A stretch of 64,000 nucleotides of DNA, taken from positions 64,001 through 128,000 of the IMG/VR virus record IMGVR_UViG_3300029305_006221; one strand, 5' to 3'. The first letter of the stretch is position 1. Every line of letters starts with the position of its first letter. The DNA is from a virus. The notes under the pieces were generated by a model, which worked only from the letters and a program-made list of their open reading frames with translations, made no database searches and was not told where the DNA came from. Shown piece after piece: positions 1-38,799 of this stretch. Position numbers and translations under genes: made by a program.

Positions 1-110
1 TATGGAATTACATAACCGCCAATCTCTTTGGCTCTTTTTTCCGCCTCTTTTTTATTGGTAAACAAATCCTCAAAAGCGCAAGTATAATCTTCACATACTA
101 CATAGACTTT
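1..110 (-). CDS. hypothetical small protein. N-terminal part only; the ORF runs off the window start
   Basis: ATG at 110-108 preceded by an AGGAGAAG RBS. Reads MKVYVVCEDYTCAFEDLFTNKKEAEKRAKEIGGYVIP with no stop before position 1. Confidence 0.4.
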
Positions 111-140
111 CATTTTTTCTTCTCCTTATATTTTTTATGA

Positions 141-161
141 GAGAGGGCTTTGCGCCCTCTC
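141..161. other. GC-rich inverted repeat GAGAGGGC-TTTGC-GCCCTCTC that overlaps the TGA stop of the 160..513 gene
   Basis: Perfect 8-bp stem. Same core as the hairpin at 778-797. One of a family of GGGCGC/GCGCCC hairpins between early genes. Confidence 0.5.
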
Positions 162-513
162 AATAAGTGTCATAGCCAAGTATCTCAGCGGTTTCTCCGT
201 CTACAAGACCAAGAAATATTGCATTGTCAAAGTTGTCATCAGCAATCTCTTGACATTTTGCTATAAAGTCTTCCATTTCTTCTCCGTCTTCTTTCTTGAG
301 TTCTACAAAGAAGACTTCTCCGCTTTCTTCGTCTACAAAGTTGCTATCAAGCCACTCGCCAACCTCTGTGATATCCCATATTGCTTTGTTTGTGTCTAAC
401 ATTGTTTTTACCTCTCTTTTATGTATTTGTATCAAGAGCAAGTTGTCTGTCTGCTCTAAACTACTCAATGGTTTCGGGTATCTCAACCGTGCGTTCTCCG
501 AGTTTTCGTTCAT
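160..513 (-). CDS. hypothetical acidic protein, 117 aa
   Basis: Intact ORF with no in-frame TAG. Sits directly downstream of the consensus promoter at 546-574. Confidence 0.6.
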   Translation of the reverse strand: MNENSENARLRYPKPLSSLEQTDNLLLIQIHKREVKTMLDTNKAIWDITEVGEWLDSNFVDEESGEVFFVELKKEDGEEMEDFIAKCQEIADDNFDNAIFLGLVDGETAEILGYDTY

Positions 514-545
514 CGTTTCCGAGCCTTGCTCTTGATTACATACAT

Positions 546-574
546 ATTATATCATAAATAAATCTATTTGTCAA
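546..574 (-). promoter_or_regulatory. sigma-70 consensus promoter (TTGACA-17-TATAAT) on the minus strand
   Basis: Minus strand reads cacTTGACAaatagatttatttatgaTATAATatg. -35 = plus 569-574, -10 = plus 546-551, spacer 17 nt. Confidence 0.7.
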
Positions 575-610
575 GTGTTTTTGCAAAAGTTTTTTTGAAA
601 TATCGAACAA

Positions 611-728
611 GTTTACAAAAGGTTCATAATTTAATAGTAGGTGTTAAACTATTGCCTTTACGGGTAACAAATTTGAAATGAATGGTTCATAATTTTGTGT
701 AAAAAAGTTTACAAACTGTTCACAATTG
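611..728. repeat. cluster of operator-like repeats GTTTACAAA-n3-GTTCA(C/T)AATT upstream of the promoter at 546-574
   Basis: Three copies: 611-632 GTTTACAAAAGGTTCATAATTT, 684-696 GGTTCATAATTTT, 707-728 GTTTACAAACTGTTCACAATTG. Related copies at 1425-1455 and 1963-2054. Confidence 0.5.
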
Positions 729-761
729 CGCAAAGCGGCTCGCGCGCGATTGTGTGCGAGC

Positions 762-797
762 CGGCAAAGAAAAGAAGAGGGCGCAAAGCCCTCTATA
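762..797 (-). terminator. rho-independent terminator on the minus strand
   Basis: Minus strand reads AGAGGGCTTTGCGCCCTCT then TCTTTTCTTTGCC, immediately after the stop of the 798..974 gene. Confidence 0.6.
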
Positions 798-974
798 TTA
801 GTTTATCGCTTGAATACAAACTACATCATCTGATGTTTCGTATATTTCAACGTCAGGATTGTCTGTTGAAGTCTTGACCTCTACATATCCGACATAGCCA
901 CTCATAACCTCAAGCATAATAGGTGCGTCTTGAGGCATTTCTTCAAGTTTCTTTATAAGTTCTCTTACTGTCAT
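798..974 (-). CDS. hypothetical small protein, 58 aa. Below the 60-aa cut-off of the ORF track
   Basis: AGGAAAGGAGA RBS, then ATG at 974. Reads MTVRELIKKLEEMPQDAPIMLEVMSGYVGYVEVKTSTDNPDVEIYETSDDVVCIQAIN and ends at TAA. Confidence 0.45.
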   Translation of the reverse strand: MTVRELIKKLEEMPQDAPIMLEVMSGYVGYVEVKTSTDNPDVEIYETSDDVVCIQAIN

Positions 975-1003
975 ATGTATCTCCTTTCCTTATGGGGATT
1001 GCC

Positions 1004-1279
1004 TTAGCAATCCCCCGTGTAGCAACCCATATAGGGGTCAAAGCCGCTCTCATCAGCTTCATCGACGAAATCATCGTCCCACGCATCATTATAGATGAGG
1101 CTATTGGCGCCGTGGTCATAGATGATTTGCGCCATAGCGGTTGCGCGCTCTTTGTCGAGCATATCGTCTGCAACAAGGTCAACAAGTTGCGCGATTGCGA
1201 TAGTGTGAATATCCTCAAAGCCGAATTCCTGAACCGCCAAGTTCTGACAGTTATGAAGAGTAAGTTTGGTGTAGTCCAT
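1004..1279 (-). CDS. hypothetical acidic protein, about 91 aa. The ORF track shows 1004..1321
   Basis: An internal ATG at 1279 has a good AAGAGGT RBS. Asp/Glu-rich. The overlapping ORFs 943..1218(-) and 992..1417(+) are judged spurious. Confidence 0.5.
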   Translation of the reverse strand: MDYTKLTLHNCQNLAVQEFGFEDIHTIAIAQLVDLVADDMLDKERATAMAQIIYDHGANSLIYNDAWDDDFVDEADESGFDPYMGCYTGDC

Positions 1280-1385
1280 AGTGTACCTCTTGATTATGTA
1301 TTCAGTAAAAGAGCCTTGCAAGGTAGGAGTGCATATTGCGAGGGTGCTTTTTCAACCCTTATCTCCTCTCTCTTACTGTACCATT

Positions 1386-1414
1386 ATTATATCACATATC
1401 GGGATAGAAGTCAA
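1386..1414 (-). promoter_or_regulatory. sigma-70 consensus promoter (TTGACT-17-TATAAT) on the minus strand
   Basis: Minus strand reads ctaTTGACTtctatcccgatatgtgaTATAATaatgg. -35 = plus 1409-1414, -10 = plus 1386-1391. Confidence 0.7.
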
Positions 1415-1424
1415 TAGGCAGAAT

Positions 1425-1455
1425 GCACAAACTTTCAATCAAATATTTGTGTAAC
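1425..1455. repeat. operator-like repeat of the same family as 611-728, in inverted orientation
   Basis: Plus strand GCACAAACTTTCAATCAAATATTTGTGTAAC. Its reverse complement contains GTTACACAAAT and AAAGTTTGTGC. Confidence 0.4.
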
Positions 1456-1475
1456 CTATACAAATCGCGTAAAAC

Positions 1476-1535
1476 GTCGCGCCACGACCGCCGGCGCGAC
1501 GGCGAAAGGAAAAGCGCCTTGATGCTGCAAGGCGC
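1476..1535 (-). terminator. two rho-independent terminators in tandem on the minus strand, closing the GC-rich ncRNA
   Basis: Minus strand GCGCCTTG-cagcat-CAAGGCGC then TTTTCCTTTC (plus 1504-1535). Then GTCGCGCC-ggcggtcgt-GGCGCGAC then GTTTT (plus 1473-1500). Confidence 0.65.
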
Positions 1536-1899
1536 TTTATAGTCTACCTCTTGCAGGAGGACAGGAGGTAAGCCATCTGCAAGAGGTTGGTCATATGCTC
1601 GAATGAGGGTGGTTATACGCTACCTACCAAAACGCTCCCGACTATATGCCGTAGGCTCGGGTTATTGGTCGTGGTTTATGGAGAGCCACGCTCCGCTCCG
1701 ATATTGAACACAAGCCCTCGGAGTGGGGTAGGGTAGTCGTTGTTCGCCCCTTCGCTACCAATAGGGGGCGGCTACTTTGCAGTTGCCAAGCTGGACGGTG
1801 TTATCGACTATCCCAACTGTCGGTCAAGGGGCGGTCAGCCGTTACTCTCGTGTGGATTGGGTGCGATTGTCGAGGTCTGTCGCTCCGCTCTCCCTTTGA
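1504..1899 (-). ncRNA. unidentified structured GC-rich non-coding RNA, about 400 nt
   Basis: A GC-rich island sharply bounded within an AT-rich genome. No ORF apart from a spurious 62-aa one. Transcribed on the minus strand from the perfect extended -10 promoter at 1907-1935 and closed by tandem terminators. Long-range complementarity GGGAGAGCGGAGCG (5' end) with CGGAGCGGAGCGUGGCUCUCC, and an 11-bp stem ACCTCTTGCAG/CTGCAAGAGGT. No match I can recognise to tRNA, tmRNA, RNase P, 6S, group I or hammerhead motifs. Confidence 0.6.
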
Positions 1900-1906
1900 C
1901 ACTTAT

Positions 1907-1935
1907 ATTATACCACAATGGATACTAAATGTCAA
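1907..1935 (-). promoter_or_regulatory. sigma-70 consensus promoter with extended -10 (TTGACA-17-TGgTATAAT) on the minus strand, driving the ncRNA
   Basis: Minus strand reads cctaTTGACAtttagtatccattgtggTATAATataagtg. -35 = plus 1930-1935, -10 = plus 1907-1912, TGn at plus 1913-1915. Confidence 0.75.
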
Positions 1936-1962
1936 TAGGTTTTATAAATTTCTTTATGAATT

Positions 1963-2054
1963 TTTTGTAAACAGTATATGAATATTGGGATAAGTTTTGT
2001 TCATAAAATATTTACAATTTGGAAACAAATAATTTACAAATCGTTCACAAATTG
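1963..2054. repeat. cluster of operator-like repeats of the GTTTACAAA / GTTCACAA family upstream of the ncRNA promoter
   Basis: 1963-1985 TTTTGTAAACAGTATATGAAT (inverted copy), 1994-2020 GTTTTGTTCATAAAATATTTACAATTT, 2031-2054 AATTTACAAATCGTTCACAAATTG. Confidence 0.5.
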
Positions 2055-2109
2055 CTTTAGCGGCGCGTCGCGGGGGATGACGCGCCGCGCAGTCAATATT
2101 AAGCGGATA

Positions 2110-2129
2110 AGGGCGCACTCAGGCGCCCT
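2110..2129. other. GC-rich hairpin AGGGCGC-actca-GGCGCCCT with the TGA stop of the 2119..2439 gene in its loop
   Basis: Member of the hairpin family at 141-161, 778-797, 2656-2675 and 3119-3137. Confidence 0.45.
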
Positions 2130-2439
2130 CGTCATCAAGCTGTGACTCTATGAATGGTATAATAGTTTTAAGTATCTCAACCTCTTTGGCGGTCAACCCT
2201 ATAATATCATAGTAGGCTATCACTTCCCCAATATCCTTATAGATAGGATATACACTTGGGGGCAGATATTTATTAACCTCAATATATGGCTCACTGTCGC
2301 TGTCTCCCCACATTCTGCGCCCTTCTTTATCGTATATGGCGAGGACGTCACCAAAGTATCTTGCAAGGTATTCTGCCCACTGTGTAAACTCATTTTCGAT
2401 ATGTATTCTTTTCATTTGTTTAATTCTCCTTATACTCAA
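2119..2439 (-). CDS. hypothetical protein, 106 aa
   Basis: Intact ORF with no TAG. Confidence 0.55.
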   Translation of the reverse strand: MSIRRIKQMKRIHIENEFTQWAEYLARYFGDVLAIYDKEGRRMWGDSDSEPYIEVNKYLPPSVYPIYKDIGEVIAYYDIIGLTAKEVEILKTIIPFIESQLDDEGA

Positions 2440-2665
2440 ATTTAACTGTTACCTTTGTATAACCGTATTGCTCTAAGTGTCGAGGGGTTAGCGCCCTACT
2501 CTTGCATAATGACAGTATGGCGCGCTCTTGATAATACTTCTTATTTGCAATATAATCCTCTATGCTTTGTATCTCTACTCTGCGGGTAAGGGGTTGGCGC
2601 CCCTTATCGCTTAATAATATTATTCTTGCATATAACATAATCCTACCTCTTGAGTAGGGGCTCAT
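2420..2665 (-). CDS. hypothetical protein, 81 aa
   Basis: Its ATG (2665-2663) overlaps the TGA stop (2664-2662) of the upstream small ORF as ATGA. The overlap suggests translational coupling. Confidence 0.5.
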   Translation of the reverse strand: MSPYSRGRIMLYARIILLSDKGRQPLTRRVEIQSIEDYIANKKYYQERAILSLCKSRALTPRHLEQYGYTKVTVKFEYKEN

Positions 2666-2770
2666 TTGAGCCCCTTATGATATTTGTATTCTTGATATAT
2701 GGATATTACTATTGTCGGAATACTTGCAATGCCTATAACCAATATAAAACCCAACATTTCACCTAACATT
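2662..2770 (-). CDS. small hydrophobic peptide, 35 aa. Below the ORF-track cut-off
   Basis: GAAGGGAG RBS, then ATG at 2770. Reads MLGEMLGFILVIGIASIPTIVISIYQEYKYHKGLK. Its stop lies in the loop of the GC hairpin at 2656-2675. Confidence 0.35.
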
Positions 2771-2788
2771 GTTATATACTCCCTTCTT

Positions 2789-3094
2789 TTAAAATGTATT
2801 TGTAAATGCGTCAACACTTAATTCCACAGGTTTGTCGAATGAGTGCATATATATTTTAATTATTATAATGTCTCCCCTATTCCAGTCTTTTGTTATTTCA
2901 TAGCCGTGTTCATTCATAAGCTCGGTAAGATATTCATTGCTTGTTAAGAGGTCAAGCAACGTATTTTTATATGAGTAAACAGTTAAGGTATTATCATAAG
3001 AAATACCATACGCATATTTTTCAGATACTAAAACTGCTGTTGTGTTATAAGTGCAAAAATATTCATTGTTAAAGATTTTTACTGTTTTTTTCAT
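2789..3094 (-). CDS. hypothetical protein, 101 aa
   Basis: Intact ORF. RBS AAAAGGGGGAT upstream of ATG 3094. Confidence 0.55.
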   Translation of the reverse strand: MKKTVKIFNNEYFCTYNTTAVLVSEKYAYGISYDNTLTVYSYKNTLLDLLTSNEYLTELMNEHGYEITKDWNRGDIIIIKIYMHSFDKPVELSVDAFTNTF

Positions 3095-3125
3095 TTTTAA
3101 ATCCCCCTTTTATATAGCGGGGCGC

Positions 3126-3308
3126 TTATTGCGCCCCTATTAACTTTTGAGTGTTACCGATATTCGCTTTATATTCAAAGTATAGCGCCATTTCATCAAG
3201 CTCCTCATCTGTTGGAATATGTGGCTTTAATTCGTTTTCTAACTCTTGCAACGCTATCTCAAACTCAAGCTCTCTTTTATTGTCTATGTATCTGTCAATA
3301 ACTACCAT
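3126..3308 (-). CDS. hypothetical protein, 60 aa
   Basis: Intact ORF. Its TAA stop lies in the loop of the GGGGCGC-ttatt-GCGCCCC hairpin at 3119-3137. Confidence 0.5.
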   Translation of the reverse strand: MVVIDRYIDNKRELEFEIALQELENELKPHIPTDEELDEMALYFEYKANIGNTQKLIGAQ

Positions 3309-3311
3309 TAT

Positions 3312-3566
3312 TTAATCCCCCCTTGTATCAAACTCATCTTGAACATTATTAAAAAAGTATTCAACATTATTGACGTCAATTCTGTAATACTCACAAAACT
3401 CTTTTCTTGCTTGTTCGTCGGTGTTTAGCTTGTGGAGTCTTGCGTTATGGTTTTCTATATTATCAGAACCGTAACAAGCTAAAAAAGTATAGTGTTCTTG
3501 TTCCCAGCTTGTGCCTTTGTTATAAACGACGGGCTTTTTAAGTTTGTAGCATATTGTGTTAGCCAT
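3312..3566 (-). CDS. hypothetical protein, about 84 aa. The ORF track shows 3312..3614
   Basis: The internal ATG at 3566 (MANTICYKL...) is preceded by an AAAAAGGGGAT RBS. The 16 codons upstream are a poly-A read-through artefact. Confidence 0.45.
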   Translation of the reverse strand: MANTICYKLKKPVVYNKGTSWEQEHYTFLACYGSDNIENHNARLHKLNTDEQARKEFCEYYRIDVNNVEYFFNNVQDEFDTRGD

Positions 3567-3626
3567 TTTTTTTATCCCCTTTTTATTTTTTCTTTTTTTT
3601 GTTAAAGTGACCATTTTTAGATATTG

Positions 3627-3776
3627 TTAATTTATTGCAACCAATATCCATTCTTTACAGTCGCAACCATTGTTTTTCATTGCTTCCCATACATTAATAC
3701 CTTTAATGTGTTTTACTGTTCCATTGTACTTGTTTGCAATTCTGAAAGTTAAAAGATTGTTGTTTGTGTTCATCAT
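3627..3776 (-). CDS. hypothetical small Cys-containing protein, about 49 aa. The ORF track shows 3627..3878
   Basis: Internal ATGATG at 3776 with an AGAGAGGTAAAAAA RBS. The upstream part is a poly-A/poly-Lys artefact. Confidence 0.4.
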   Translation of the reverse strand: MMNTNNNLLTFRIANKYNGTVKHIKGINVWEAMKNNGCDCKEWILVAIN

Positions 3777-4077
3777 TTTTTTACCTCTCTTTTCTTTTTT
3801 TGTTTTTTGCTTGACTCTCTCAAGCTCTGTAAATATTATACCACTTTTAAAAATAATTGCAAGAGGTAAAATGCACAAAGTTTAAAATTTTTTTAGGTAT
3901 TTTTTTGTGCGTTTTGCCAAGACTACACAGAGATATTGGTAACATTTGGAAATGGTAAAAAATGGGAGGCTTTCAGGATAAATTTTCCAGAAATTGCCAA
4001 TACCCCTTTGCTCACGAAAACTCTCTCCTAGAAAATTCTTTTTATTCTAAAAAACGAAAATCATCCCCATTTCATCA

Positions 4078-4104
4078 AAAAAGAGGGATTTTAAATCCCT
4101 CTTT
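4078..4104. terminator. bidirectional hairpin terminator AAGAGGGATTT-taa-AATCCCTCTT
   Basis: Perfect palindrome with a T-run on the minus strand after the stop of the 4146..4457 gene. Confidence 0.55.
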
Positions 4105-4145
4105 CTCTTTTCTCATATTCACTCTATTTTTTACCCATGCGTATA

Positions 4146-4457
4146 TTAACCGCCAATTCGATCGTTTACGCACTCTCCCAAATCAAATAGATGCCAAACA
4201 TAAGGCCCATGTGTTAAACTTCCTATAAACTCCACTTGGCGCCCATTGCTTTTACTATACACGTTATCAAGCGGCCACCCTGTTCCTACACAAGCAACCA
4301 TGCGCGCGACCTTTGGCGCATTAGTGTTTACTCTTGCCCAAAAACACATATTATCTGCAGGATCCAATCCAAAGCTAACAATCTGCGCGCCCTCTGGCAA
4401 ATAATATTCCTGATTAATAATATTAGGCTCAACATTATATTTCCAAATACTATACAT
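4146..4457 (-). CDS. hypothetical protein, 103 aa. Last gene of the leftward early block
   Basis: Intact ORF with no TAG. Divergent from the late-operon promoter at 4529-4557. Confidence 0.6.
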   Translation of the reverse strand: MYSIWKYNVEPNIINQEYYLPEGAQIVSFGLDPADNMCFWARVNTNAPKVARMVACVGTGWPLDNVYSKSNGRQVEFIGSLTHGPYVWHLFDLGECVNDRIGG

Positions 4458-4528
4458 TTTTAAATCTCCTTTTTATTTTTATTATAACATTATTTTTTCT
4501 TAAAGTCAATCTAAAATACCACACTTTC

Positions 4529-4557
4529 TTGACAGGCGCAAAAAATTTTGGTATAAT
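4529..4557 (+). promoter_or_regulatory. sigma-70 consensus promoter (TTGACA-17-TATAAT) at the head of the rightward operon
   Basis: cTTGACAggcgcaaaaaattttggTATAATtta. -35 = 4529-4534, -10 = 4552-4557. Confidence 0.75.
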
Positions 4558-4589
4558 TTATTTAAAGATAGATGAAAGGAGCCAATAAC

Positions 4590-5759
4590 TTGGATTACGA
4601 TAATACTCAAGACCTTTTGGACATAGAAGACGAAGACTCGGCTCCTAACCAAGAGGCAGATATAATTGAAGACTAGATTGCGGCAGAGGATATTGAACAA
4701 ACTCTGCATTTAGACTATACTTTAAAAACTTGCGAAGAGCGCGCCGGTCTTGTTAATAAGATCGTAGAGCAAACTCCGGCGCAGAATCTTACAAATCGTT
4801 ATTTAGAAATATTAGGCGATTATATAATGGGCGGCATTACAAAAGAAGAAAAGAAGGGGCGCCAATACCTTACTACAAACCGCCTTATAACCATTAATAA
4901 GCGCGAAACCTCATACGAAGGATTAGCAGAAAAACTTGAAAATGGTGAAGATGGTATTTATAATTTAATCACTGATAATAAAAATATGTTTTTTCAATTA
5001 AAAGATCCTATTTCAGAGCGGGATATTGAAGAAATTCCTGGATTAAAAGAGCTGCGCGAAGAGATTGAAAAAGTAGAGGCGGCATGTAAAAGCGCCCGTG
5101 GCAAGAGAAAATATCTGTTAAAAAAACAATTAATTGAAATGCGTAAAGATCAATATATATTACGAAGTTCGGTGCGCCAGCCTGTGGTTGCGGCACCCTG
5201 CGCCAAAGGAGTAAATAAAATTGATTTGCACGTAGAATATTGGTTAGATGAAAATAGAATTCCACAAAGTAAAGGTGTAATATCTTTTTTTGATCCTAAG
5301 CATATTTCTGCAATTATGTGCAATTATAATGGATTAAAACTTGCTGTTAAAGATAAATTTTCTAGCGATTTTTATTTTCTTATGCTGGATTTTGATGAGC
5401 TATTGGACAAGGCGCTTAACAATGAACCTATATTTCGCGATATTGTCAATATGAAGTTTGATGGGATTCAGAATATTGATATACAAAAATATTTATTAAA
5501 AACATATAATAAAACCTACACCGTAGAATATATTTCAAACCTATGGCGCAATAAAATACCTAAATTAATAGCACAACAGGCGCAAATCGATTATGTTATA
5601 AAATACTATTAGTCACATAAAGGCGCCCGTTGGAAAAAATGTTCTTGTTGTGGGGTAACTAAACCCGCTCATACTTATTTCTATTCTAAAAATAGCAGTT
5701 CTAAAGATGGATGGTATAGTATGTGTAAAAAATGTCGTAATGCAAAGAATAAAAAATAA
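4590..5759 (+). CDS. hypothetical protein with a C-terminal zinc ribbon (CSCCG...CKKC), 389 aa with TAG as sense
   Basis: AAAGGAG RBS, then TTG at 4590 (ATG at 4572 also in frame). The frame is open to TAA 5757-5759 through two in-frame TAG codons (4683, 5610). This joins ORF-track ORF 4827..5612 to the downstream Cys-rich tail. Confidence 0.55.
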
Positions 5760-5845
5760 TTTAAACATATTATAAAAATTATTATAATAATATTTTTAAT
5801 TCTCTATAGAATAAATTATTTAATTAGAAAGGAGAATAAAATTGA

Positions 5846-7066
5846 ATGGCAACTTGTTTTTGTGATAAGTGTCAAAAGACAATGGATGAAGGATAGTTTT
5901 ATACCTATCATGATGGAACTAAAACTGAACTTTGTAAAAAATGTATGACACTTCATATTAATAATTTTGATGAGTCTACTTTTGTTTGGCTTTTAGAAAA
6001 AATGGATGTTCCTTACGTTCCTGGTGAATGGAATAGATTACGAGACAACGCAATGGCAAAAGCGAATGATGATCCTCGTAAATTAAATGGCATGTCTGTC
6101 TTTGGAAAATATTTATCTAAAATGAAACTGAAACAATTTAAAGATGCGCGCTGGGCGGATAGTGAGCGCCTATAGGCAGAGGCTGCGCAGAAAAAAGCTG
6201 CATCTGATGCAGAACTAGCAGAATTGGACGCAATGTATCAAGAGCAGTATGATAAAGGGGAAATTTCAGAAGCTTAGTATAGAACATTAGTAAGCACCAC
6301 TGCGCGAAATGCTAATTTTTATTCAAAGGCGCCATCTATAGCTTAGCCGATTGCGCCTGATACCAACTTTTTTGATGAAAATCAATTCTTAGATGATTCT
6401 GAGATCCCAGACCCCGCCGCGTCTTTAACATAGGAAGATAAAATAGCAATGGCTGTAAAATGGGGAAAGCTATACAAACCAAATGAATGGGTTATTCTTG
6501 AAACAGATTATACTAAAATGAAAAAATCATTTGATATTCAAGATGCGGACTCTGAAAATACCTTAATCCTTCTTTGTAAAACTAATTTAAAAGCTAATCA
6601 AGCTATTGACTGTGGAGATATTGAAGGTTATCAAAAACTTGCGAAAGTGGCAGAATCTTTGCGTAAAAGCGCAAAATTTACCGCTCAATAGAATAAAGAG
6701 GAAAAAGGAGATTTTGTTGACTCTGTTGGTGAATTAATAGCGTTATGCGAAAGAGATGGTTTTATTCCTAGATTCGCTACAGATATTCCTCAAGATAAAG
6801 TAGATATGACTTTAAAAGATATGAATGAATATGTGCGCAAATTGGTTACTCAAGACCTTGGTTTCGGACAGCAAATAGAAGATTCTTTAAAAAAGATTAT
6901 GCTTCAAAATGAAATGAATAAAGAGGCGGAAGAGCGTCAAATGGAAGAGGGCGACGATTATGATCCATATGCGCCAAATGAATTGGCTGATGAAGATTTA
7001 ATTGATTATTATGATGAAATTATGAGTCAAAAAATACAAGATAAAAATATTTATACTGAGGTATAA
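5846..7066 (+). CDS. hypothetical protein with an N-terminal zinc ribbon (CFCDKC...CKKC), 406 aa. Possibly a terminase small subunit or DNA-binding protein
   Basis: AAAGGAG RBS, then ATG 5846 with an in-frame TGA just upstream. Open to TAA 7064-7066 through about 7 in-frame TAG codons. Joins ORF-track ORFs 5945, 6449 and 6806, all in frame 2. Sits immediately upstream of terL. Confidence 0.55.
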
Positions 7067-12886: not shown

Positions 12887-13939
12887 ATGGCATTAAATAG
12901 AAATAGTTTATTTACATTAGCACACAAAGTTGCTGACGCTAATCCTTCTGCTCCCGTTGCTTATTCTTTCGAGAATAAGAACTATAGTTATGCAGATCTT
13001 GATAACACTCTTCGTGAAGAGCTTAATAGTCTTATTGGAACGTATGCTCTTTGGAGAGAGAATCACAATATTGTATTCGCACTTATGGAGGAAATTATCA
13101 CAGATAAGCTTCCTGCTAAGGTAATGCAGCAATATGGCGCATTTGCTGAAGTTAAAACATATAGACAAGGCGAAAAACCAATCTTTACACAGAAGATCAC
13201 AGAAGCTTCTCGCAGACGTGCAAAGCAGTTTATTGCAATGCCTGCAGGACTTGCTGGTCGTTACGAAGTATTCAAACTTGATGGACGTAGCTACGAAGTT
13301 AAGACTTCTGCTATGGCTGCTGCTTGTCAGATCGCTATCGAGGAATATCTTGATGGACGTGTTGACATGGCTACTCTTATCGACATCGTTATGGAAGGTA
13401 TGGATGATAGAATCTATGCTGAGATAGCAAGTTGTCTAATTGCTGCTGTTGATACAATTCAGCCTGCAAACAAGTTTGAAGGCGCAAGTTTCATCGAAGC
13501 TGAAATGGATTCTCTTCTTGCCGTAGCTGACTCTTATGGAAATGGTAGATCTACAATTTATTGCACTTTTGAGTTTGCTTCGCAAATGCTTCCTGATAAT
13601 GCTTGGGAAAAGGGCAAGATGTCTGACTCTATGAAGGACGAGTACTGGGCAAATGGTAGACTTGCAGGTTATAAGGGTCACCAAGTAATTGTTCTTCGCC
13701 AGTCTTATGTTGACGAGACCAACTCGAAGAAAGTTATTGATCCTGCATACGCATGGATTATTCCTGGCGGAGCTGAGAAGCCTATTAAGATTGCCTTTGA
13801 AGGCGATACAATGATTAAAGAAGAGGACAATGACGACTGGTCTAAGAGCATCCATTTCTATAAGAAAGTCGGAGTTGCCACAATGATTAATAATGATATT
13901 TGTGTTTATAAGAACACATCTCTCACTATTGATAGATAA
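12887..13939 (+). CDS. major capsid protein, 350 aa
   Basis: Intact ORF with no TAG. GGGAGGG RBS. Typical size and position. Followed by a strong terminator. Confidence 0.6.
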   Translation: MALNRNSLFTLAHKVADANPSAPVAYSFENKNYSYADLDNTLREELNSLIGTYALWRENHNIVFALMEEIITDKLPAKVMQQYGAFAEVKTYRQGEKPIFTQKITEASRRRAKQFIAMPAGLAGRYEVFKLDGRSYEVKTSAMAAACQIAIEEYLDGRVDMATLIDIVMEGMDDRIYAEIASCLIAAVDTIQPANKFEGASFIEAEMDSLLAVADSYGNGRSTIYCTFEFASQMLPDNAWEKGKMSDSMKDEYWANGRLAGYKGHQVIVLRQSYVDETNSKKVIDPAYAWIIPGGAEKPIKIAFEGDTMIKEEDNDDWSKSIHFYKKVGVATMINNDICVYKNTSLTIDR

Positions 13940-21084: not shown

Positions 21085-24000
21085 ATGGCTAATTAGGGAA
21101 GAATTACTTTTGGCATTGGTTTTAATGTAGATTAGTCTGGTTTAAATTAGCTTAAGGCTTCTTTAGCAAGTTTATAGAATATGCAAACTAGAGATTTAGT
21201 AAATGTAGATTCTAAAGGGAAAGCATAGGCTAAATTACGTGAAATTAAAGAAATGGCTGGCCAAGTAGAAGCTGCTCTTTAGCAAAGTTTTAACCCTGCA
21301 TTAAACACCTATAATATTGATACTTTTAAAAAGAAATTAAATGAAAATGTAGGAACTTTATCTTAGGTAAAAGCAAAAATGGCAGAGGCTGGCGCTGAAG
21401 GTACAATAGCGTTTAGAAATTTAGCTACTGCAATTTCTTCAACGAAATTACCTTTAAGAGAATCTCATGATTTACTTAAGGCAATGGGCACCACCTTAAT
21501 GAACACTGTAAAATGGAGTATTGCATCAAATGCAATTAATACTGTAACAGGTTCTGTTCAAAAAGCTTGGAGCTATACAAAGTAGCTTGATGAATCATTA
21601 AATAATATAATGATAGTAACCGATAAAAGCGCGGATTCGATGGCATAGTTTGCGCGCTAGGCAAATAAAGCCGCAAAAGAGTTAGGTAAAAGCACTAGAG
21701 ATTATACGGATGCTTCTCTTATTTACTATCAATAGGGTCTTGATGATGCATAGGTAAAATCTAGAACCGAAACGACATTAAAGGCGGCAAACGTAACGGG
21801 TTAGTCTGCAGATGTTGTATCTGAATAGTTAACTGCCGTTTGGAATGGTTACAAGGTATAGGCGCAAGAAGCTGAGTTATATGTAGATAAACTTGCGGCC
21901 GTTGCTGCAACTACGGCGGCCGACCTTGAAGAACTTTCAACTGGTATGTCAAAAGTTGCTTCTGCAGCTAATACAATGGGAGTAGATATTGACCAGTTAA
22001 ATGCAATGTTAGCAACTGCTGTTTCTGTAACGCGTCAGGCGCCTGAGTCAGTTGGTACTGCATTTAAAACTGTATTTGCGCGTATTGGCGATATTGAAGC
22101 TGGCATAAGCGATGAAGCTACTCTTGGTGAGTATACGAAATAGATGCAATCAATGGGTATAAATGTCCTTGATACAAATGGCAAACTTCGTGATCAAGGA
22201 GACGTAATTGAGGAAATTGGTAATAAATGGAATCAAATGTCTCGTGAGCAACAAATTGCTCTTTCTCAGACTATGGCTGGTACCAGACAATATAATAATC
22301 TTTTAGCGCTGTTTGATAACTGGAATATGTATGAGCAAGCAATGAAAACCTCTGTAAATGCAGCTGGAACATTGCAGAAACAATAGGACACTTATATGGA
22401 ATCTATTGAAGCGCATATGGAGCAACTTAGAACTGCCGGCGAGCGCGTTTATCAAGCATTGTTAGATCCTGATAGTGCCAATGACTTACTTGATGTATTA
22501 ACTGAAATAGTTGATAAATTTGGTAGCTTTATAGAGTCTATTGGCGGCGGTGGTAATTTATTGATGTCGCTTATTCCTATTTTAACTAGAGTATTTTCAG
22601 GTTCTATTGCAACAGGCTTAACAACTTTTGTAACAAACCTTAAAAATGCAGGCCAAGAAGCAACAACATTAAAATCGGTGCTCTAGGGGATAAATGAAAT
22701 AGGATCCTTAGACAGTTTGACCGAAGCTGATAAAAAAATTAATGATTTAAGACGCACTTTGGTGCTTTTGCGACAACAAGGTGTTATAACAATAGAAGAA
22801 TTTAATTCAATGTCTGCAAGTGTTACAGAGTATGGAGATGCGATTTCAGAAATTGAAAGAAAAAAAGAAAATAGAGAAAAAACTAAAGATAGATTAGGAG
22901 TTTTAACAGATGCAGGCTTAGCAGAAAAAGGTAATCATAATATAGCTAAAGATAAAGCGAAAAGAGAAAAATATTTCGACAGAGTCTATACTTTTGGAGA
23001 TGAGTTAAGCTCCAAAGGATTATCGGAAGAAGCCATTAAATCTTCTATCGGAGATAAAAACGCAGCTCTTGCAAAGAGTGGTGCAGCAAATGCTTATAAA
23101 GAAATTAATGACGCATTGATTTCAATTAAAAATAATATAGATGATATTGATAATAAAAATAAAGAATTTACTAAGGGTATTTAGACCACTATTGCTAATT
23201 AGGAAAAATATAGTAGAACCATTATAGATTCTAAGCGATAGTTTGAGAAACTTGTGGAAAAAACAGAATCTTTAAAAACTTTTTACACTGATACGACTGA
23301 AGGAAAAAAATTTGAAAATTATGAAGCTAGAATTTCTAAATTATTATCAAAAGAACATCTTGACTCTGAAGAAATGGCGATATTGCAAAAATTGCAAAAT
23401 GAATATAGTAGTTTTATTAACAGTCATTTACAAGAAGTGTCGTCTTTAGGCAGTAAAGAGGAACTAGAATCTATTGATATTAAAATTAAAGAATTAACTG
23501 CTTCATCAAATAAGTTTAAACAGTCTATTGAAGATATAAATAAAGCTCATAGTAATCAAGAAGATTAGATTGAAAAAATTAAGTCGAAGTTTGAAGAACT
23601 TGATAAAGAAGCTAAAAAATTAGAAGATGCAAATTTACTTGGCGGAGCAAGCAGAGGAGATTTAACTAAAAGAGCTAATAGCATTAGAAATTTACTTGAT
23701 GACACTAGTAAAAGAGGAGAGCTCTTAAAAGATCCAGAAAAATTATCACATTTATATGAAGAATATGAGGCGACACTGCAAAAAGCAATAGCAGAAGGTA
23801 GAAAAGAAGTTAAAAATTTATCTACTGATATAGATAAGGGTATAACTGATGGAGTTGGAAAAGCAAAGGCTCAAGCAGAAGGTCTTGGAGAGGCTTTAAG
23901 AAATGCTCTTTCAAAAGCTTAGCTAGAGTTAAAGATAAAATAGTTTGTTAATTTAACTTCCAATATTGCAATGGCTGGTAATGCACTTCGAAATTTAATT

Positions 24001-27000
24001 AATTTAGGAGACATTTGGAATAATCAAGATTTAGAACTAGGGGAAAAAATATTTTAGACAATAACCAATGTAGGCTCCTCTTTAAGTATGCTTCTTCCTA
24101 CCATTACAATGATAACAGCTGCAATTTCTAAGAAAACTGCTGCAACTACTGCTTCAACAGGCGCTACAGCCGCTTCTGCGATAACTGATATGTTTTATGC
24201 TAAAACACAGGACGAAGTTACCGAAGAAATGACTGACTAGGCATTTTGGTTAAAATCACTAAAAAGTCTTTAGAACGATCTTAATGATGAACAGAGAAAA
24301 GCAATTGCAAACACATTGAAGGAAGCTGCGGCAAGAAAAAAGAATAATGAAGAGCTTGCTAAAGAAGCTTTGCTTAAAGATACTGAGCAAAATATAAACG
24401 ATAATAAAAAATCTTTTAATCTCTTTAAATCAAAAAAAGCTCCAACAACAGCAGCAGGTAAAGTTTTAAATGTTGGTGGAGGCGCCTTAGCGGCGGCCGC
24501 CGCAGCATATATAGGAGCAACTTTAACTTCTAAGCTTGTTACCTCTTTGTATGATTAGCAAGAAGCCAATTTTAAAGCGGCTTCAGAAGCAGCAAAATAG
24601 GCCGAGTCTAATTTAAACAAAGTAACCGAAGCCTATGACAATTTATCAAATTCACTTTCTAATATTTCTTCTTTAAAGGATTCTTTAAAGGATTTAACAG
24701 AAGGTAGTGTTGAATGGGAAAAAGCGGTTGCTGATATTAATGCTGAAACTAGGTAGCTTATTGAAACATACCCAGAAATAGCTAAAAATGGCTATTATGA
24801 AAATGGAGTATTAACCCTAGACTCAGAAAGTTAGTTAAAAGTTGAAAGAGAATTGTTAAACCAAAGATATAAAGCTCAAAACTCTAAAATAGTAGCAGAT
24901 GAGACTAAATAGGCAGCAGAAATTGCTGCAAAACAAGAAAGTCTTGCAGGCGAGCTTAATTATTTGAATGAACTTTCAGAATTGGGGACTGGGGCAACAG
25001 TAGCAATTTCTCTTGCGCTGGGTGGTATTTTTGGGTTAGCAACTGGTGGATTAGCAGTTCCAATTATTGCTGGATTAGGACTTGGAGCCTTTGGAGGAGG
25101 ATTTTCTACATACCTTGAAGAAGAAGAAGAAAATGATACAGAAGAGGCTTTAATAAAAGTAGTAAACAAATTAGCAGAGTCAGAAGAGAAAGACTTAAAT
25201 GGATATTTACAGAATAGCTCTAAGCATCTCGCAGAATTGTTAGACAAGAATGTTGAAGAGTTAACAAATGCAGAAAGAGCCTTATTGAGTAATACCAGTG
25301 AAATAAATGCTTTAGCTTAGGAGATAAGAAAAGCAAATGAGTTAAAGCTCATGCAAGATACTGAGTTTTATCGTCAAAGATATTTGTCTCAAGGATATTC
25401 TGTAGAAGATGCGGCTGCAATGGGAGGTATGACTGCATCAGCTACCGATTATGCTGCAGAAGAAGAGGCGATAAGTAAACGCGCCGAATAGATAATGAAA
25501 AAGAAGGGGAATAATAAAGATCTCATTATCTAGTGGGCAGAATCTTAGGGAATTACTTTAACCAAGGACGATATTAAAGAAACAGGCGGAGCTAATTTTA
25601 AATATAAAAACGCTAATGGCGAATGGGTATCAATGAGCTATGAAACAATAGCTCGCCAATAGGCCACCACAGAAGTAAAAAATACTGCCTCTAGTGAAGT
25701 AAATGCATTAGAATACAAGAAATAGCTTAACGCAATTGTAAAAGGTATTTCTTTAGAAGGAACAGATATTTTAAAATCACTTTTGGCTTCTAATAAAGAA
25801 ATTTTAGCTGAAAATATTGAAGAGTTTAATAATGCCACTATTGATGAACTACAAAAGATATGGGAAAGGGCTGATGAATTAAATTTATCAAGTGAGGCAA
25901 AAAAAGCGCTTGGAAAAACTATTGAGGAAGCTAAAATATATTAGGAAAATATTGCCACAGTAGAAAACTGGGGTGAAAGCACTTATGATGCTATTAATAA
26001 GATTTTCAATGATAATGGCGAATGGTCTAACATTTGGAATAATTTTAGTGCCTCTTAGATTAGAGCTTTTGGTAAAGCATTAACTAAAATCGAATTATTC
26101 GGTGGAAAACAAGCAGCTAAAGCAGCAGAGTCTATATTTAGTAAGATGACTGATGCAGATGCAGAATCTGTGCTTACTAATATGAACTGGGAATCAGAGA
26201 CTTTACTTGCAGACTTTTCTGCAGAAATGGAAAAAGTTGGTAAAGTTTTAGATTATACTAGTGGAGAAGGTTTTGCGATTGCGTATGCTTTATCTCGTGC
26301 TAATGATTAGATGGTGATTTCCAAGGAAGCGTGGAAAGAAACTGCAAGCATTCTTGAGTCATTAAATGAAGAGCAAGCATCGTTAGATATGGATAATTAT
26401 TAGCATCTTATTGAGATGTATGGAACAGCTATCTCTAAGTATTTTACTCAAATGGAAGATGGCACTTATAGATTGATAACTGCCTCTACTGATTTTGCTA
26501 AGACTATTGATGACTTGGAAGAAAGAAAAATAGAAGCAGCTATTAAGACTGAAATTGAGTCTATTAGGACTTTTGACGAAGAGTATGATAAAATTTTAAA
26601 TGATTTTGTTTTTAATACGATACCTGATTCCGACGATGGAATTTCTGCTTCTAAAATTAAAACGCTTGATGAAATAATTAAGGTAAAAGGATATGAAAAT
26701 GCTAGTTTAACAGGAAAAGATCTTAATAAAACTGAAGGTTTTTCTGAATCACAAACTCATGCGGTGTTATAGGGAGCACTTACTCTTGATGAATATAAAG
26801 GATTAAATAAAGTAATAGATTTTGTTTATACTAAAACATATGGCGATAACTGGCGAGATAATGGTGATGCTTGGAATGATATGACGGAATAGGTTGGCGG
26901 AAAGAATTTTATCATTGATTTAGACCCCGCTGGAGATTCAACATCATTTACTTATGATGAATTACAATAGGAATTTACAGAAGAAGAAATAAAAAAATGG

Positions 27001-30000
27001 TTTAAAAATACGACATCATCTGGAGGATATTATGCAAATAATGTTGAAGCTAACTATGCACAGCTTACTAACGCAATCGCTAATCAAGCAGCCAAAGAAC
27101 GAAATGAAGCTCTTGGAGTCGATAATAAATATGTAAAAAAATCTGATATTGCTCAATGGTTATATTAGTTATCTGCTATTGGCGCGTTAAATAGTGAGCT
27201 TTATACCAAATATTCACAAGAATTAGACGGACTTCCCCCAGAGTCGGAATCATTAAAAGTGCCAGAAGATGGTGGAGATTGCGCTTTTGTTGCTGATGTT
27301 AAAAAAGACCTTGAATCAAGTGATGTTAAACCAGATACTGAAAAATTAAACGAATATATTGATCAGTGGATTAGAAGCGCAGATTCTCAAGAAGAGTTTG
27401 ATGAACGAGTAGCAGAAGCTCAAGGACTAGCTTCAACAGTTTTAGGAGACGAGTTTGATGAAAAAGCCTTTAAAGATACGGTAAAAGAATTACAAATTTC
27501 ATTAGGAGTAAAACTCGAAACTAAGGCGCTTGAAAACTTCAAAACTGAGATGGATCAAATCTCTAATTTAATTTCTAATTTAGATAGTAAACTATCACAC
27601 TTATCATCTGTGGCAGATTCCTTGTATGGACAAGATAGACTAGATTATATTGAGGAATAGAATAAGGTTATTCAACAATAGATAAAGCTTCTTGAACGTC
27701 AAGCTAAGATTGAGTAGCTAGAACTCAATAGGCAAAGAACGTTTACCCCTGGAGAAAACAACACTACTTATGAGGCTGCGTTAAAAGATCTTGCTCGATT
27801 AGCAGGCTATGCAAATGCTGATATTATGAGTGAAGCTGAGCTTTGGAACGCACTCGGTATTACAGATGTAACAACTCAAGAAGGTGCTTAGAATTCTCTT
27901 TTAAATATAAGAGAAATGTTTGCTCAGCGTGGAATAGCTGCTGATGAAAATCTTAATAAGTTATACCTTGCAGCGATTGGTAATCTAGAAACTATTTTGG
28001 AGCCAGTTACTTCTGGAAAAACAAAGTATGCTATAGATGAAAAGAAAGCTCAAGAGTTAGCTAATAATCTTGTTAGTTTTGAACATAAAATTGAATTTAC
28101 TTTAGATGAAGGTGAATTAAAAAGAGAGTTTGAGGCACTAAAACGAGAAGTATTTATTGATGAAGAAGATTTTTCAGAAATAACTAAATCTTATATTACA
28201 GATTATCAAACCGCAATTAGTGATCTTACAACTATTGAAGATGCTCTTAAAGAAATTGATAGTTTAAACATTTCTGCAGAAGCAAAGCTTGAGAAAAGAA
28301 AAGAATTAACTTCTCAATACGGAGAAAAGTTAAAAGAGATTTAGTAGATTGAAGAATCTATTGATCAATAGAGACTTGCAGCTTTAAATAAAATTTCTGA
28401 GGGATATGAAAAACAAATTTCTTATCTTGAAGAAATTAATGGTCTTTTAGATACTCAAAGAAGCATGATAGAGCTTATTTATGGCGAAGATGCGTATGAG
28501 ATGTTAAATTCTTATTATAGTTCTTCTCTTGATAATGCATTAGCTATTCAAGAAAGCACTCAATAGAGATTTGCAGCAGCTGCTTCAAACTATAGCAGAA
28601 TTAACGATACTACAATGAGTGACGAAGAACGCGAAGCTATTATTGAAGAATATACTGCAGCAGGACAGGCAAGCGCAGAAGCGATGTATTCGGTAATGGA
28701 AGCGCGCCGTGATAAATATCTGAATGATACAGAGATTGCTATAAAGAATTTTAATAAGAGTGTTTATGGTAGTTTAGATACAGAGCTATTTACCAGTGAA
28801 TGGGATTGGACTAAATCTCAAATGGATAAATACTATGATTCTGTATAGAGCTTGTTCGAAAAAGATAAACTTGCTGTTCAATTTGATACTGCGGCTAATG
28901 AAGCTACTTCACTTCGTGCACAAGAGCAGATTAATAAACTTAAGAGAGAAGAATTGGCGCAACTTGAAGAAATTGAGAAATTAAGTGAGTATGATGTGCA
29001 ACATGCACAAAAGAAGCTTGATATCCTTTAGGCCGAAATTGCGCTTCGTGAAGCTCAAGAGAATAAAACTCAAATGCGCTTAATGAGGGGCGCAGATGGC
29101 TCTTATAGTTATCAATATGTTGCTGATTAGGCGGCAATTGTTGAAGCTTAGAATAAACTAACAGAAGCTCAAGATGCTTTATATAATATGGAACTAGATG
29201 AATACACTTCTTCTATTGATGAATTTTAGGGCGCAATGTAGGATTTAGCGGATGTAATTCGCAAATTCGGAGAAGATGGTATTTACACCACAGAAGAATT
29301 AGCATTGATTGAGAAGCGTAAAAAAGAAATTTAGAATTTAGCAGAGAGAAGCATAAGAATTAGAACCAATGTTTTTGAATCTGCTGAGTTAGCGGCTTCA
29401 ACTTTTGGTAAAGATCTTTCTGAGCTGACCCAAGGAACTGTTCTTTAGATGACTAAAGATATCGATGCTATTATTAATGAGGTAGCAAAAAATGGTATTG
29501 ATAATAGTTATCAAAGTTTAATGGATACAATGCTTACTATTTCTAATAAATATTTAGATAAATAGAAAACTGGAGCAGAAGAATTGGCCACTGTAATTGG
29601 TTCTGCTGATCCAAGTTCTGGATTAATCGGCTCTTATTAGACATTATCAGAAAAATAGGATGCGGTTATTAAACAATATTAGACTGAATATTCAGAGGTA
29701 TCTATTCTTGCTGGACAATATGATATCCTTAAAGCTTCTCTTGAGCGAGTTAGGGATATGTATATTGCAATTGCAAACGCAAGAAAATTAAGCAATAAAG
29801 AAGAGGAAGAAGAGATTTCTGGACCTGGTCCTGACAATACTAGAACTGGTGGACTACGAAAAACTAATAAAACAAGTAGTGAGGTTGCTAGTTTATTTAA
29901 TCAAGAAGTTTATTTGTATTCAGAAAGAAGCCGATTCGATGAAGAGGGAAATAGAGTAGCAAGCTGGAGAACAGGAAATATTCATACCTATAATAGTTCT

Positions 30001-30588
30001 GGTGAATTAGATATTATTACTGTTTCTGATCATACTGGTAAAGATATGAAGAACACTAAATATACGGTTATAAGTTCAGATATATGGACAGATGCAGAAG
30101 GTTGGGGATATGTGCAAGTGCGAGATAAAGATGGAGAAATTTTTTATCTTCCAATTGAATTTTTAAAAAATGAGAATAAGAATTCAGAGAACGGCCATTG
30201 GGCAGTATTAAATTCTGGATTATTTGATGGTCTAGAAAAATATGATACTGGTGGATACACTGGTGAATGGGGCACAGATGGTCGTATGGCAATGCTTCAT
30301 GAAAAGGAATTGGTTCTTAATAAAAAAGATACTGAGAATTTCTTAGACGCACTTTCAATTCTTCGTGAGCTTAACCTTTCAATGATGGCGCAAATCGGCC
30401 GCTTTGGAATGCCATTTAGCAATTCACAAAATTCTATCTTATAGCAATTAGCTTCTCAACCAATTGAGCAAAATGTTACAATTCAAGCAGAGTTCCCGAA
30501 TGCGACAGACAAAGATGAGATTAAAGAGGCGTTTAATGACCTTATTAATCTAGCTACTTAGTATGTGCATTAGGATGATAAATTTTAA
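21085..30588 (+). CDS. tail tape measure protein, 3167 aa with dozens of TAG codons read as sense
   Basis: AAGGAGG RBS, then ATG 21085. Thirteen ORF-track fragments from 21379 to 29758, all in frame 1, are joined only by TAG. No in-frame TAA or TGA until TAA 30586-30588 across the inter-fragment gaps I checked by hand (23568-24316, 24558-24964, 25320-26416). TP901-family core motif IGNKWNQMSREQQIALSQTMAGTRQYNNLLALFDNW at about 22200. Long Ala/Gly-rich and coiled-coil regions. Confidence 0.8.
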
Positions 30589-30620: not shown

Positions 30621-30642
30621 AAGAGAGAAAAGGAGAGATAAT

Positions 30643-38786: not shown

Positions 38787-38799
38787 GGAGGAATAAATA

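Follow-up and report, generated by a model that had tools for sequence, protein, structure and literature searches.

Phased arrays of transcription-factor sites at phage early promoters are already known. In SPbeta, a Firmicute siphophage of ~135 kb, the short element SPBRE occurs at about ten early promoters and is bound by the master repressor MrpR/YopR; in silico prediction of this operator long preceded the discovery of its binder (PMC10516654). The early promoters of phages phi29 and Nf carry 0A boxes, through which the host protein Spo0A represses early transcription (PMC2731898). In T4-type phages, PeSL cassettes place a stem-loop terminator and an early promoter between small variable early genes (PMC2839356, PMC4122927). 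Here we describe a new element, found in 64,000 nt of viral DNA (positions 64,001 to 128,000 of IMG/VR record IMGVR_UViG_3300029305_006221; this whole stretch is called the window below). It consists of short repeats, termed motif 1, that stand upstream of two minus-strand early promoters, P1 and P3, near the left end of the window. The sites are non-random, conserved across related phages and stereospecifically placed with respect to the -35 hexamer. From sequence comparison, we propose that a protein binds them as regulatory arrays coupled to the neighboring promoters, with a probability of roughly 0.6. To our knowledge, nothing is known about early-gene control in large TAG-recoded Firmicute phages of the gut and rumen.

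The promoters and the copies of motif 1 in the window are as follows.

546 to 574, minus strand: promoter P1 (TTGACA, 17-nt spacer with TG, TATAAT)
612 to 629, minus strand: motif-1 dimer TTATGAAC-CT-TTTGTAAA, in the same direction as transcription, ending 37 nt from the P1 -35
686 to 692, minus strand: lone motif-1 half-site TTATGAA
708 to 725, minus strand: motif-1 dimer TTGTGAAC-AG-TTTGTAAA, ~12 nt past a GC-rich hairpin
1386 to 1414, minus strand: promoter P2 (TTGACT, 17-nt spacer with TG, TATAAT)
1907 to 1935, minus strand: promoter P3 (TTGACA, 17-nt spacer with TG, TATAAT)
1954 to 1982, plus strand: motif-1 trimer TTATGAA-N4-TTGTAAA-N4-aTATGAA with an 11-nt period, inverted with respect to transcription
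2000 to 2017, minus strand: motif-1 dimer TTGTAAAT-AT-TTTATGAA
2033 to 2050, minus strand: motif-1 dimer TTGTGAAC-GA-TTTGTAAA, ~9 nt past a GC-rich hairpin

The unit of motif 1 is a 7-nt half-site, TT[G/A]T[G/A]AA, usually followed by C and repeated head-to-tail with an 11-bp period; a preliminary description of this DNA had instead given the unit as GTTTACAAA-n3-GTTCACAATT. The 18-nt bipartite sequence TTTACAAANNGTTCAYAA has four matches with at most one mismatch in the 64 kb (612-629, 708-725 and 2033-2050 on the plus strand, 1954-1971 on the minus strand), against 0.02 expected, and none of 100 shuffles reached four. The generalised dimer TTYAYAA-N4-TTYAYAA, again with at most one mismatch, has 10 matches against 2.83 expected, and six of these are confined to ~0.3 kb within 612-725 and 1954-2050 (the four TTTACAAANNGTTCAYAA matches together with 1965-1982 and 2000-2017). 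Exact half-sites number five upstream of P1 (575-735; 0.30 expected, Poisson P=1.6e-5) and eight upstream of P3 (1936-2059; 0.23 expected, Poisson P=1.7e-10), with none upstream of P2 (1415-1474). The P3 arrays proper (1954-2050) comprise six exact half-sites and a seventh with one mismatch. Every motif-1 copy in the window lies at least 18 nt upstream of a -35.

The preliminary description listed seven copies of a motif flanking three perfect promoters. Six of these copies are retained: those at 611-632, 707-728, 1994-2020 (here 2000-2017) and 2031-2054 are genuine dimers, that at 1963-1985 is genuine and part of the trimer, and that at 684-696 is reduced to a lone half-site. The seventh, at 1425-1455, belongs to a different box family (motif 2, below), so that motif 1 flanks only P1 and P3. 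Both of these promoters match the consensus exactly, and P2, with TTGACT, nearly so. The copies are upstream as described, though "immediately" was too loose a term for a nearest copy 18 nt (P3) or 37 nt (P1) from the -35. The central proposal of multiple operator sites tied to early promoters is borne out as a reading of the sequence, both by the enrichment in the window and by recurrence in related phages at phased distances from the -35. Simple AT-rich background, which had been named as the explanation that would defeat it, is not the source of motif 1, as indicated by the chance-level counts in the related phage Phass-1 given below.

Related loci were gathered by a pattern scan of IMG/VR and by look-ups via a conserved early protein, which together gave ~18 distinct loci. 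The scan returned 118 loci, mostly single chance matches, with about a dozen relatives among them; the strain variants L002-L010 are too similar for footprinting. Megablast of window positions 1-6000 against the INPHARED phage collection gave no match. Across 13 non-redundant loci, a motif-1 dimer lies within 70 nt upstream of 57 of the 157 consensus promoters, compared with 3 in the downstream control and 7.4 in random windows. The gaps between half-site and -35 form an 11-bp ladder. Inverted half-sites are found at 8-9 nt (20 cases), 18-20 nt (32 cases) and 29-31 nt (14 cases), and half-sites in the orientation of transcription at 15-16 nt (10 cases) and 26-27 nt (10 cases). The trimer at 1954-1982, which ends 18 nt from the P3 -35, thus occupies the canonical inverted position of the relatives.

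The composition of the sites is similarly constrained. Among 185 dimers (at most one mismatch) in 140 kb from 12 related loci, T, T, T, A and A are near-invariant, two positions hold G or A, C is favoured after the half-site, and the spacers are variable. The most frequent half-sites are TGTAAA (127), TATGAA (101) and TGTGAA (66), with TATAAA at 15 of 370. Arrays reach five consecutive units at the 11-bp period in one locus, L051. The complete 136-kb genome of Phass-1, the nearest deposited relative, served as a negative control: it has 47 consensus promoters and only two motif-1 matches, at chance level, indicating that motif 1 is not a by-product of A/T-rich, promoter-dense phage DNA.

Closer comparisons demonstrated that the half-sites outlast their surroundings. 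From the first dimer to the -10, the region upstream of P1 shares ~95% identity with related locus L104 without substitution in any half-site, compared with 73-76% for the flanking genes. The dimer at 612-629 is the same in L104 save for one spacer base, and that at 708-725 is identical despite replacement of the neighboring hairpin sequence; the dimer at 2033-2050 is the best conserved among relatives. The cassette layout of P3 is retained in six phages despite sequence turnover, and reads hairpin, direct dimer, T-rich stretch, second dimer, TCCCnTCCC, inverted dimer or trimer, and 8-19 nt to the -35. The C-rich block TCCCnTCCC (TTATCCCAAT here, ~1985-1995) separates the distal and proximal arrays and is also conserved in the equivalents in L137, L138, L139 and L142. 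Motif 1 is common to phages that have no other intergenic similarity, and the other cassette elements are phage-specific.

This pattern bears on the possibility that the repeats are passive, being inherited copies of a duplicated promoter-terminator cassette that provide at most homology for recombination. The cassette layout does recur between small variable early genes, as in the documented PeSL cassettes (PMC2839356, PMC4122927), and the breakpoints of gene replacement coincide with cassettes: strain variant L007 diverges directly after the P1 -10, and L003 at the start codon. Furthermore, two phages place the same non-coding RNA (described below) behind a motif-1 promoter, and a third places it behind a motif-2 promoter. 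We conclude that the early regions of this clade are built from shuffled terminator-hairpin-operator-promoter cassettes. The likeness to PeSL is an organizational analogy; the host group is different, the sequences appear to be so too, and here there are at least two operator-like box families and a second, GC-rich hairpin. Nevertheless, passive inheritance is a very improbable account of motif 1. Half-sites are retained within cassettes whose spacers, hairpins and flanks change; the number, direction and register of the copies differ in an ordered, phased manner unlike simple duplication; and the motif is shared by phages otherwise dissimilar between genes.

Under the proposed reading, copies of a protein would line up head-to-tail along a single helical face, with a half-site TT[G/A]T[G/A]AA(C) every 11 bp. 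The arrays extend from about -44 outward and stand close upstream of some of the sigma-A-type early promoters. The cassette runs in the order terminator, GC-rich hairpin, boxes, UP-like tract where present, and -35/-10. The bound protein may contact or occlude RNA polymerase, at the C-terminal domain of the alpha subunit (alpha-CTD) or at sigma region 4, and would thereby set the timing of these units. In cassettes of the P3 type, the distal array on the hairpin side would point at the inverted proximal array, an arrangement that suggests cooperation or looping. Since these core promoters already match the consensus and have an extended -10, tuning or shut-off would be favored over activation. 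A role at the RNA level is unlikely, since the sites come after terminators and before promoters and occur in both orientations.

The sites might also work without a dedicated protein, if phased A-tracts bend the DNA or provide a UP-like contact for the alpha-CTD and so boost strong promoters. The repeat unit holds AAA(C)AA/TTT runs at an 11-bp period, both orientations are used at helically phased positions, and another class of promoters in the same phages (class A, below) has plain phased A/T tracts in this place. Against these similarities, G or A at two positions and the trailing C are conserved amid A/T-rich DNA, with the pure-A/T form TATAAA rare as counted above; the preferred register differs by orientation; distal arrays lie 100-170 nt upstream, out of reach of a UP element; and P1 has a separate UP-like block between motif 1 and its -35. 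We regard this explanation as quite improbable. Binding by a non-specific host nucleoid protein, a possibility the preliminary description had raised, is likewise unlikely because G and C positions are conserved and the spacing is strict, and nothing in our analysis shows the lysis/lysogeny switch that it had also suggested.

Motif 1 was compared with several known sites. SPbeta is similar in that its structural families YonD_N and YonG_N are also present in the window, and SPBRE, a 15-bp element, was considered. Its sequence, AAAAAATATGTATAT as re-derived from seven targets found by chromatin affinity precipitation sequencing (ChAP-seq), is unlike TTRTRAA-N4-TTRTRAA, and it sits in the spacer between -35 and -10, in contrast to the phased direct repeats of motif 1 upstream of the -35; SPBRE was therefore rejected. 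No gene for an MrpR-like repressor of tyrosine-recombinase fold is evident in the Pfam listing of the window and the adjoining sequence past its left end (L001), a listing that leaves ~60 kb of the contig uncovered. The Rex operator, TTGTGAA-W4-TTCACAA (PMC2883068), shares the half-site TTGTGAA, the 4-nt spacer and the 18-bp length. It was rejected as well: Rex sites are inverted repeats bound by a symmetric dimer, and because the halves of motif 1 are direct repeats, a dimer of that type would not fit. A UP element, which would be a purely A/T-rich tract at about -40 to -60, was rejected on the conserved G and C positions and on the separate UP-like tract found at P1 (575-611) and at class A promoters. 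Sites for CRP/Fnr, DnaA, SinR and IHF, the LexA Cheo box and cre were rejected by sequence or symmetry.

A host regulator of the OmpR/PhoB family (WalR, PhoP or ResD-like) is a further explanation, by which a small number of early units would respond to a physiological signal of the host. In concept, the 0A boxes of phi29 and Nf come nearest to such a case, a host response regulator at phage early promoters (PMC2731898). They too are tandem 7-bp boxes near strong early sigma-A promoters, one of them 26-27 bp upstream of the -35. Motif 1 is not itself a 0A box: the 0A sequence is TGTCGAA with a 3-bp spacer and 10-bp period, versus TGT[G/A]AAC/TATGAAC with a 4-bp spacer and 11-bp period, and the central CG of the 0A box is matched by no motif-1 half-site. 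The format of motif 1, hexamer direct repeats with an 11-bp period upstream of the -35, does fit the OmpR/PhoB family, and the WalR/VicR box is TGTWAH-N5-TGTWAH (PMC4168254). The hexamer repeats, 5-nt spacer and 11-bp period of this box are all found in motif 1; the commonest half-site, TGTAAA, fits exactly, 41% of half-sites match the WalR hexamer, and the window copies (TGTGAA-N5-TGTAAA) are one mismatch away. In contrast, TGTGAA and TATGAA, 45% of half-sites, are off-consensus, each dimer in the window has one such half (TGTGAA or TATGAA), and only 18 of the 185 dimers are WalR-like in both halves. Arrays of three to five units in both orientations are also unusual for WalR. The B. subtilis PhoP box, whose reverse complement is taken here as TGT[T/A/G]AA, would accommodate 57% of half-sites. 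TATGAA, at 27% of half-sites, falls outside both the WalR and PhoP consensuses.

Other observations compatible with a host regulator are that motif 1 is common to phages whose remaining cassette elements are phage-specific, and that no early protein matched a DNA-binding domain in Pfam. The consensus promoters, on the other hand, need no activator, and Phass-1, of similar clade and habitat, is without the motif. On balance, we consider a host response regulator unlikely as the explanation of motif 1.

A phage-encoded binder is the likeliest case, although that it is encoded by the phage at all is, in our estimate, an even bet. No DNA-binding family was found among the early proteins of the window and L001 in Pfam, PHROGs or PDB sequence searches, and the replication module at 57-64 kb contains no regulator. 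An all-against-all comparison of open reading frames (ORFs) in the related loci picked out one conserved early family, represented here by two genes ~6.5 and ~7.5 kb past the left end of the window (L001 17456-17851 and 18419-18853). Neither product belongs to a Pfam or PHROG family. Metagenomes contain 275 homologues, and the best-scoring 120 of the 275 show 63-97% identity. In an AlphaFold model (predicted local distance difference test score 84), the N-terminal part is helical and the C-terminal domain forms a winged helix, and Foldseek matched the winged helix to H1/H5, ArsR, MarR, TubR and BlaI with probability ~1. The two paralogues share 32% identity and lie ~1 kb apart in every close relative examined, and a motif-2 promoter always precedes the second. 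The complete genome of Phass-1 lacks this family, as it lacks motif 1. We tentatively suggest, with the modeled fold in mind, that this conserved pair may be the binder, an assignment we hold possible but short of probable. One paralogue would read motif 1, whereas the other would read the TTTGTGCA boxes found in front of the gene that encodes it. The earlier suggestion that the regulator may be among the small early proteins or be encoded beyond the window agrees with this predicted pair, the sole candidate in this phage; in relatives, a 48-amino-acid gene product resembling CopG/ribbon-helix-helix (RHH) proteins is a second candidate.

These protein folds also recall replication and segregation systems. 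Iterons and centromere-like sites (TubR/tubC, ParR/parC) typically consist of direct repeats with a period of 11-12 bp to which small proteins of the winged-helix or ribbon-helix-helix type bind. If motif 1 were of this kind, acting in replication initiation or segregation, its proximity to promoters would be coincidental. TubR is among the Foldseek matches, relatives have the CopG/RHH-like gene, and in L051 a region of ~400 bp holds at least 20 half-sites together with two GC hairpins, the nearest consensus promoter being ~300 bp away. However, the sites are spread over many cassettes and not gathered at one locus, and the tight ladder of distances to the -35 is repeated at dozens of promoters, making such a function scarcely probable.

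Several points weigh against regulatory arrays as we propose them. Perfect core promoters need no activator. Motif 1 occurs at only 2 of the 23 consensus promoters in the 20-kb early region of this phage, P1 and P3, and is therefore not a general early-gene switch here; the look near other early promoters that the preliminary description had suggested finds the motif in the related loci and not in this phage. In some cases, L051 3100-3490 among them, an array has no consensus promoter closer than ~300 bp. L051, L053, L062, L126 and L127 are rich in the motif, yet have no winged-helix homologue in the ~5-15 kb fetched for each. The winged-helix matches in Foldseek have weak E-values (0.03-0.1), and fold alone is uninformative on specificity. 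Finally, ~60 kb of the 136-kb contig lies outside the sequence examined.

The remaining features around P1 and P2, and the hairpin beyond the P3 arrays, are listed below.

575 to 611, minus strand: A/T-tract block, UP-element-like (…TTTCAAAAAAACTTTTGCAAAAACAC), between the proximal repeat and the P1 -35
736 to 763: GC-rich hairpin with stem GGCTCGC…GCGAGCC, read from the sequence, with the upstream gene's terminator on one side and the first repeat on the other
776 to 794, minus strand: intrinsic terminator of the upstream gene at 798-974
1424 to 1431 and 1446 to 1454, minus strand: motif-2 boxes, the proximal TTTGTGCA 9 nt from the P2 -35 and the distal TTACACAAA
1475 to 1501: GC-rich hairpin (CGTCGCGCC, 9-nt loop, GGCGCGACG), read from the sequence, with TTTT next on the minus strand
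2060 to 2088: GC-rich hairpin (GCGGCGCGTC, loop, GACGCGCCGC), 100% conserved in L104

All three intergenic regions share one order in the direction of transcription: terminator and T run, GC-rich hairpin, boxes and promoter, with the first box beginning ~9-19 nt past the hairpin. The hairpins at 736-763, 1475-1501 and 2060-2088, together with six more in L001, come right after a terminator and right before boxes, and the layout seen at 736-763 is found in at least eight cassettes of L001. The hairpin structure is kept while its sequence differs between cassettes and between phages; in distant relatives, other GC-rich or phage-specific palindromes occupy the position (CCCGGGCG, GTTAGTnnnnACTAAC, TAGTAGTCTGGnAGACTACTA). 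The hairpin could be a backup terminator, an insulator or the site of a second protein. As 3-5 T follow most hairpins, backup termination is the simplest reading.

P1 drives an acidic protein of 80 amino acids (160-402) via a structured leader of ~135 nt, and P2 drives a protein of 91 amino acids (1004-1279). Within the P1 leader (~403-538, minus strand), a long-range stem, AATCAAGAGCAAG…CTTGCTCTTGAT, closes an element of ~100 nt. Strain variant L007, in which divergence begins directly after the -10, does not have this element.

Motif 2 (TTTGTGCA / TGCACAAA) precedes most hairpin-type early promoters of this phage and its relatives. At P2 the distal box, TTACACAAA, is inverted. Copies of TTGTGCA group at gaps of 9-10 nt, and at times motif 2 forms the palindrome TTGTGCA-N3-TGCACAA beside a hairpin, with the proximal copy 9-10 nt from the -35. 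Copies are located at 1424-1454 and ~3860-3886 in the window and at 11050-18190 in L001. At least 13 further perfect TTGACA-17-TATAAT promoters occur within 9 kb past the left end of the window (L001 11100-18930), and many promoters of L001 have phased A/T tracts (…AAAAAATTTTTGAAAAACTTTTCAAAAACCYC) and a conserved transcript start (ATGTCAAGAGG…); this density of consensus promoters is unusually high. Three promoter classes were distinguished. In class A, which dominates the logo over 156 promoters, phased A/T tracts with CCTC at their end are the only elements ahead of the -35, and a block like that at 575-611 precedes most members of the class. Class B has a GC hairpin with TTTGTGCA/TGCACAAA boxes, and the third is the motif-1 class.

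The product of P3 is a candidate structured phage non-coding RNA (ncRNA), conserved, GC-rich and ~320-360 nt long, in which the sequence offers no convincing ORF.

1503 to 1539, minus strand: terminator hairpin and T run closing the P3 transcript, from sequence reading and as the terminal hairpin in the fold
1575 to 1900, minus strand: conserved core of the P3 ncRNA (transcript ~1540-1900)

The predicted fold has a z-score of -2.75, and four compensatory pairs fall in one helix. Homologues were detected by nhmmer in L137 (989-1350), L138 (1442-1774) and L141 (3354-3723), with E-values of 1e-51 to 1e-71; the copy in L141 lies behind a motif-2 promoter. Rfam returned no family at gathering thresholds, nor at E<=5 for positions 1400-2000.

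The window corresponds to the reverse complement of bases 2025-66024 in a 135,988-bp metagenome contig from JGI (3300031555, Ga0318466_10002506). Small minus-strand early genes, many with their own promoter and terminator, occupy the leftmost 4.7 kb of the window and continue for at least 9 kb past its left end (L001). This early region includes a PemK-type toxin homologue and a protein whose C-terminus barely passes the Pfam SASP threshold (L001 11895-12227 and 19702-20022); the SASP match hints at a spore-forming host. The phage has a siphophage-like large genome with a replication and nucleotide module encoding DNA polymerase III alpha, anaerobic NrdD and dUTPase; the NrdD gene (59276-62242) has a weak intein-splicing match. 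The late and structural genes (plus strand, 4800-56000; for example 21085-30588, 30622-35592 and 38797-41691) are broken only by in-frame TAG. Reading TAG as sense yields 22 ORFs of at least 300 amino acids (14,804 amino acids in all), including one of 3167 amino acids that is of tape-measure size, versus 11 (4,988 amino acids) under the standard code, and TGA recoding brings no gain. The pattern is one of code-15-type stop-codon recoding. No tRNA was found in the window, and any suppressor tRNA is therefore elsewhere. Phass-1, assigned to the "Caudoviricetes code 15 clade", has three tRNA-Sup-CTA genes.

Assemblies from human gut and from rumen supplied the relatives, one of which was binned with an Eubacteriales metagenome-assembled genome (MAG). 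A protein of 350 amino acids (12887-13939), possibly the capsid, matched two phage-like MAG contigs among bacterial and archaeal genomes (Eubacteriales, and a rumen "Methanobrevibacter" RUG), whose flanks stop short of the early region.

Taken as a whole, the code-15 clade might sort dozens of early promoters by TTRTRAAC and TTTGTGCA boxes, read by the winged-helix pair or by a host OmpR-family regulator, in an early-timing or host-sensing circuit with the ~320-nt structured RNA among its outputs; we offer this scheme as doubtful. The contribution of this work is a cis-element with defined half-site, spacing and register, together with a second box family, a three-class promoter map and a candidate regulator family. 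If the binder is phage-encoded, the arrays would represent a routine, though new, operator/regulator pair. If it is a host response regulator, they would be the second case, after phi29 and Spo0A, of a phage sensing host physiology through such boxes.

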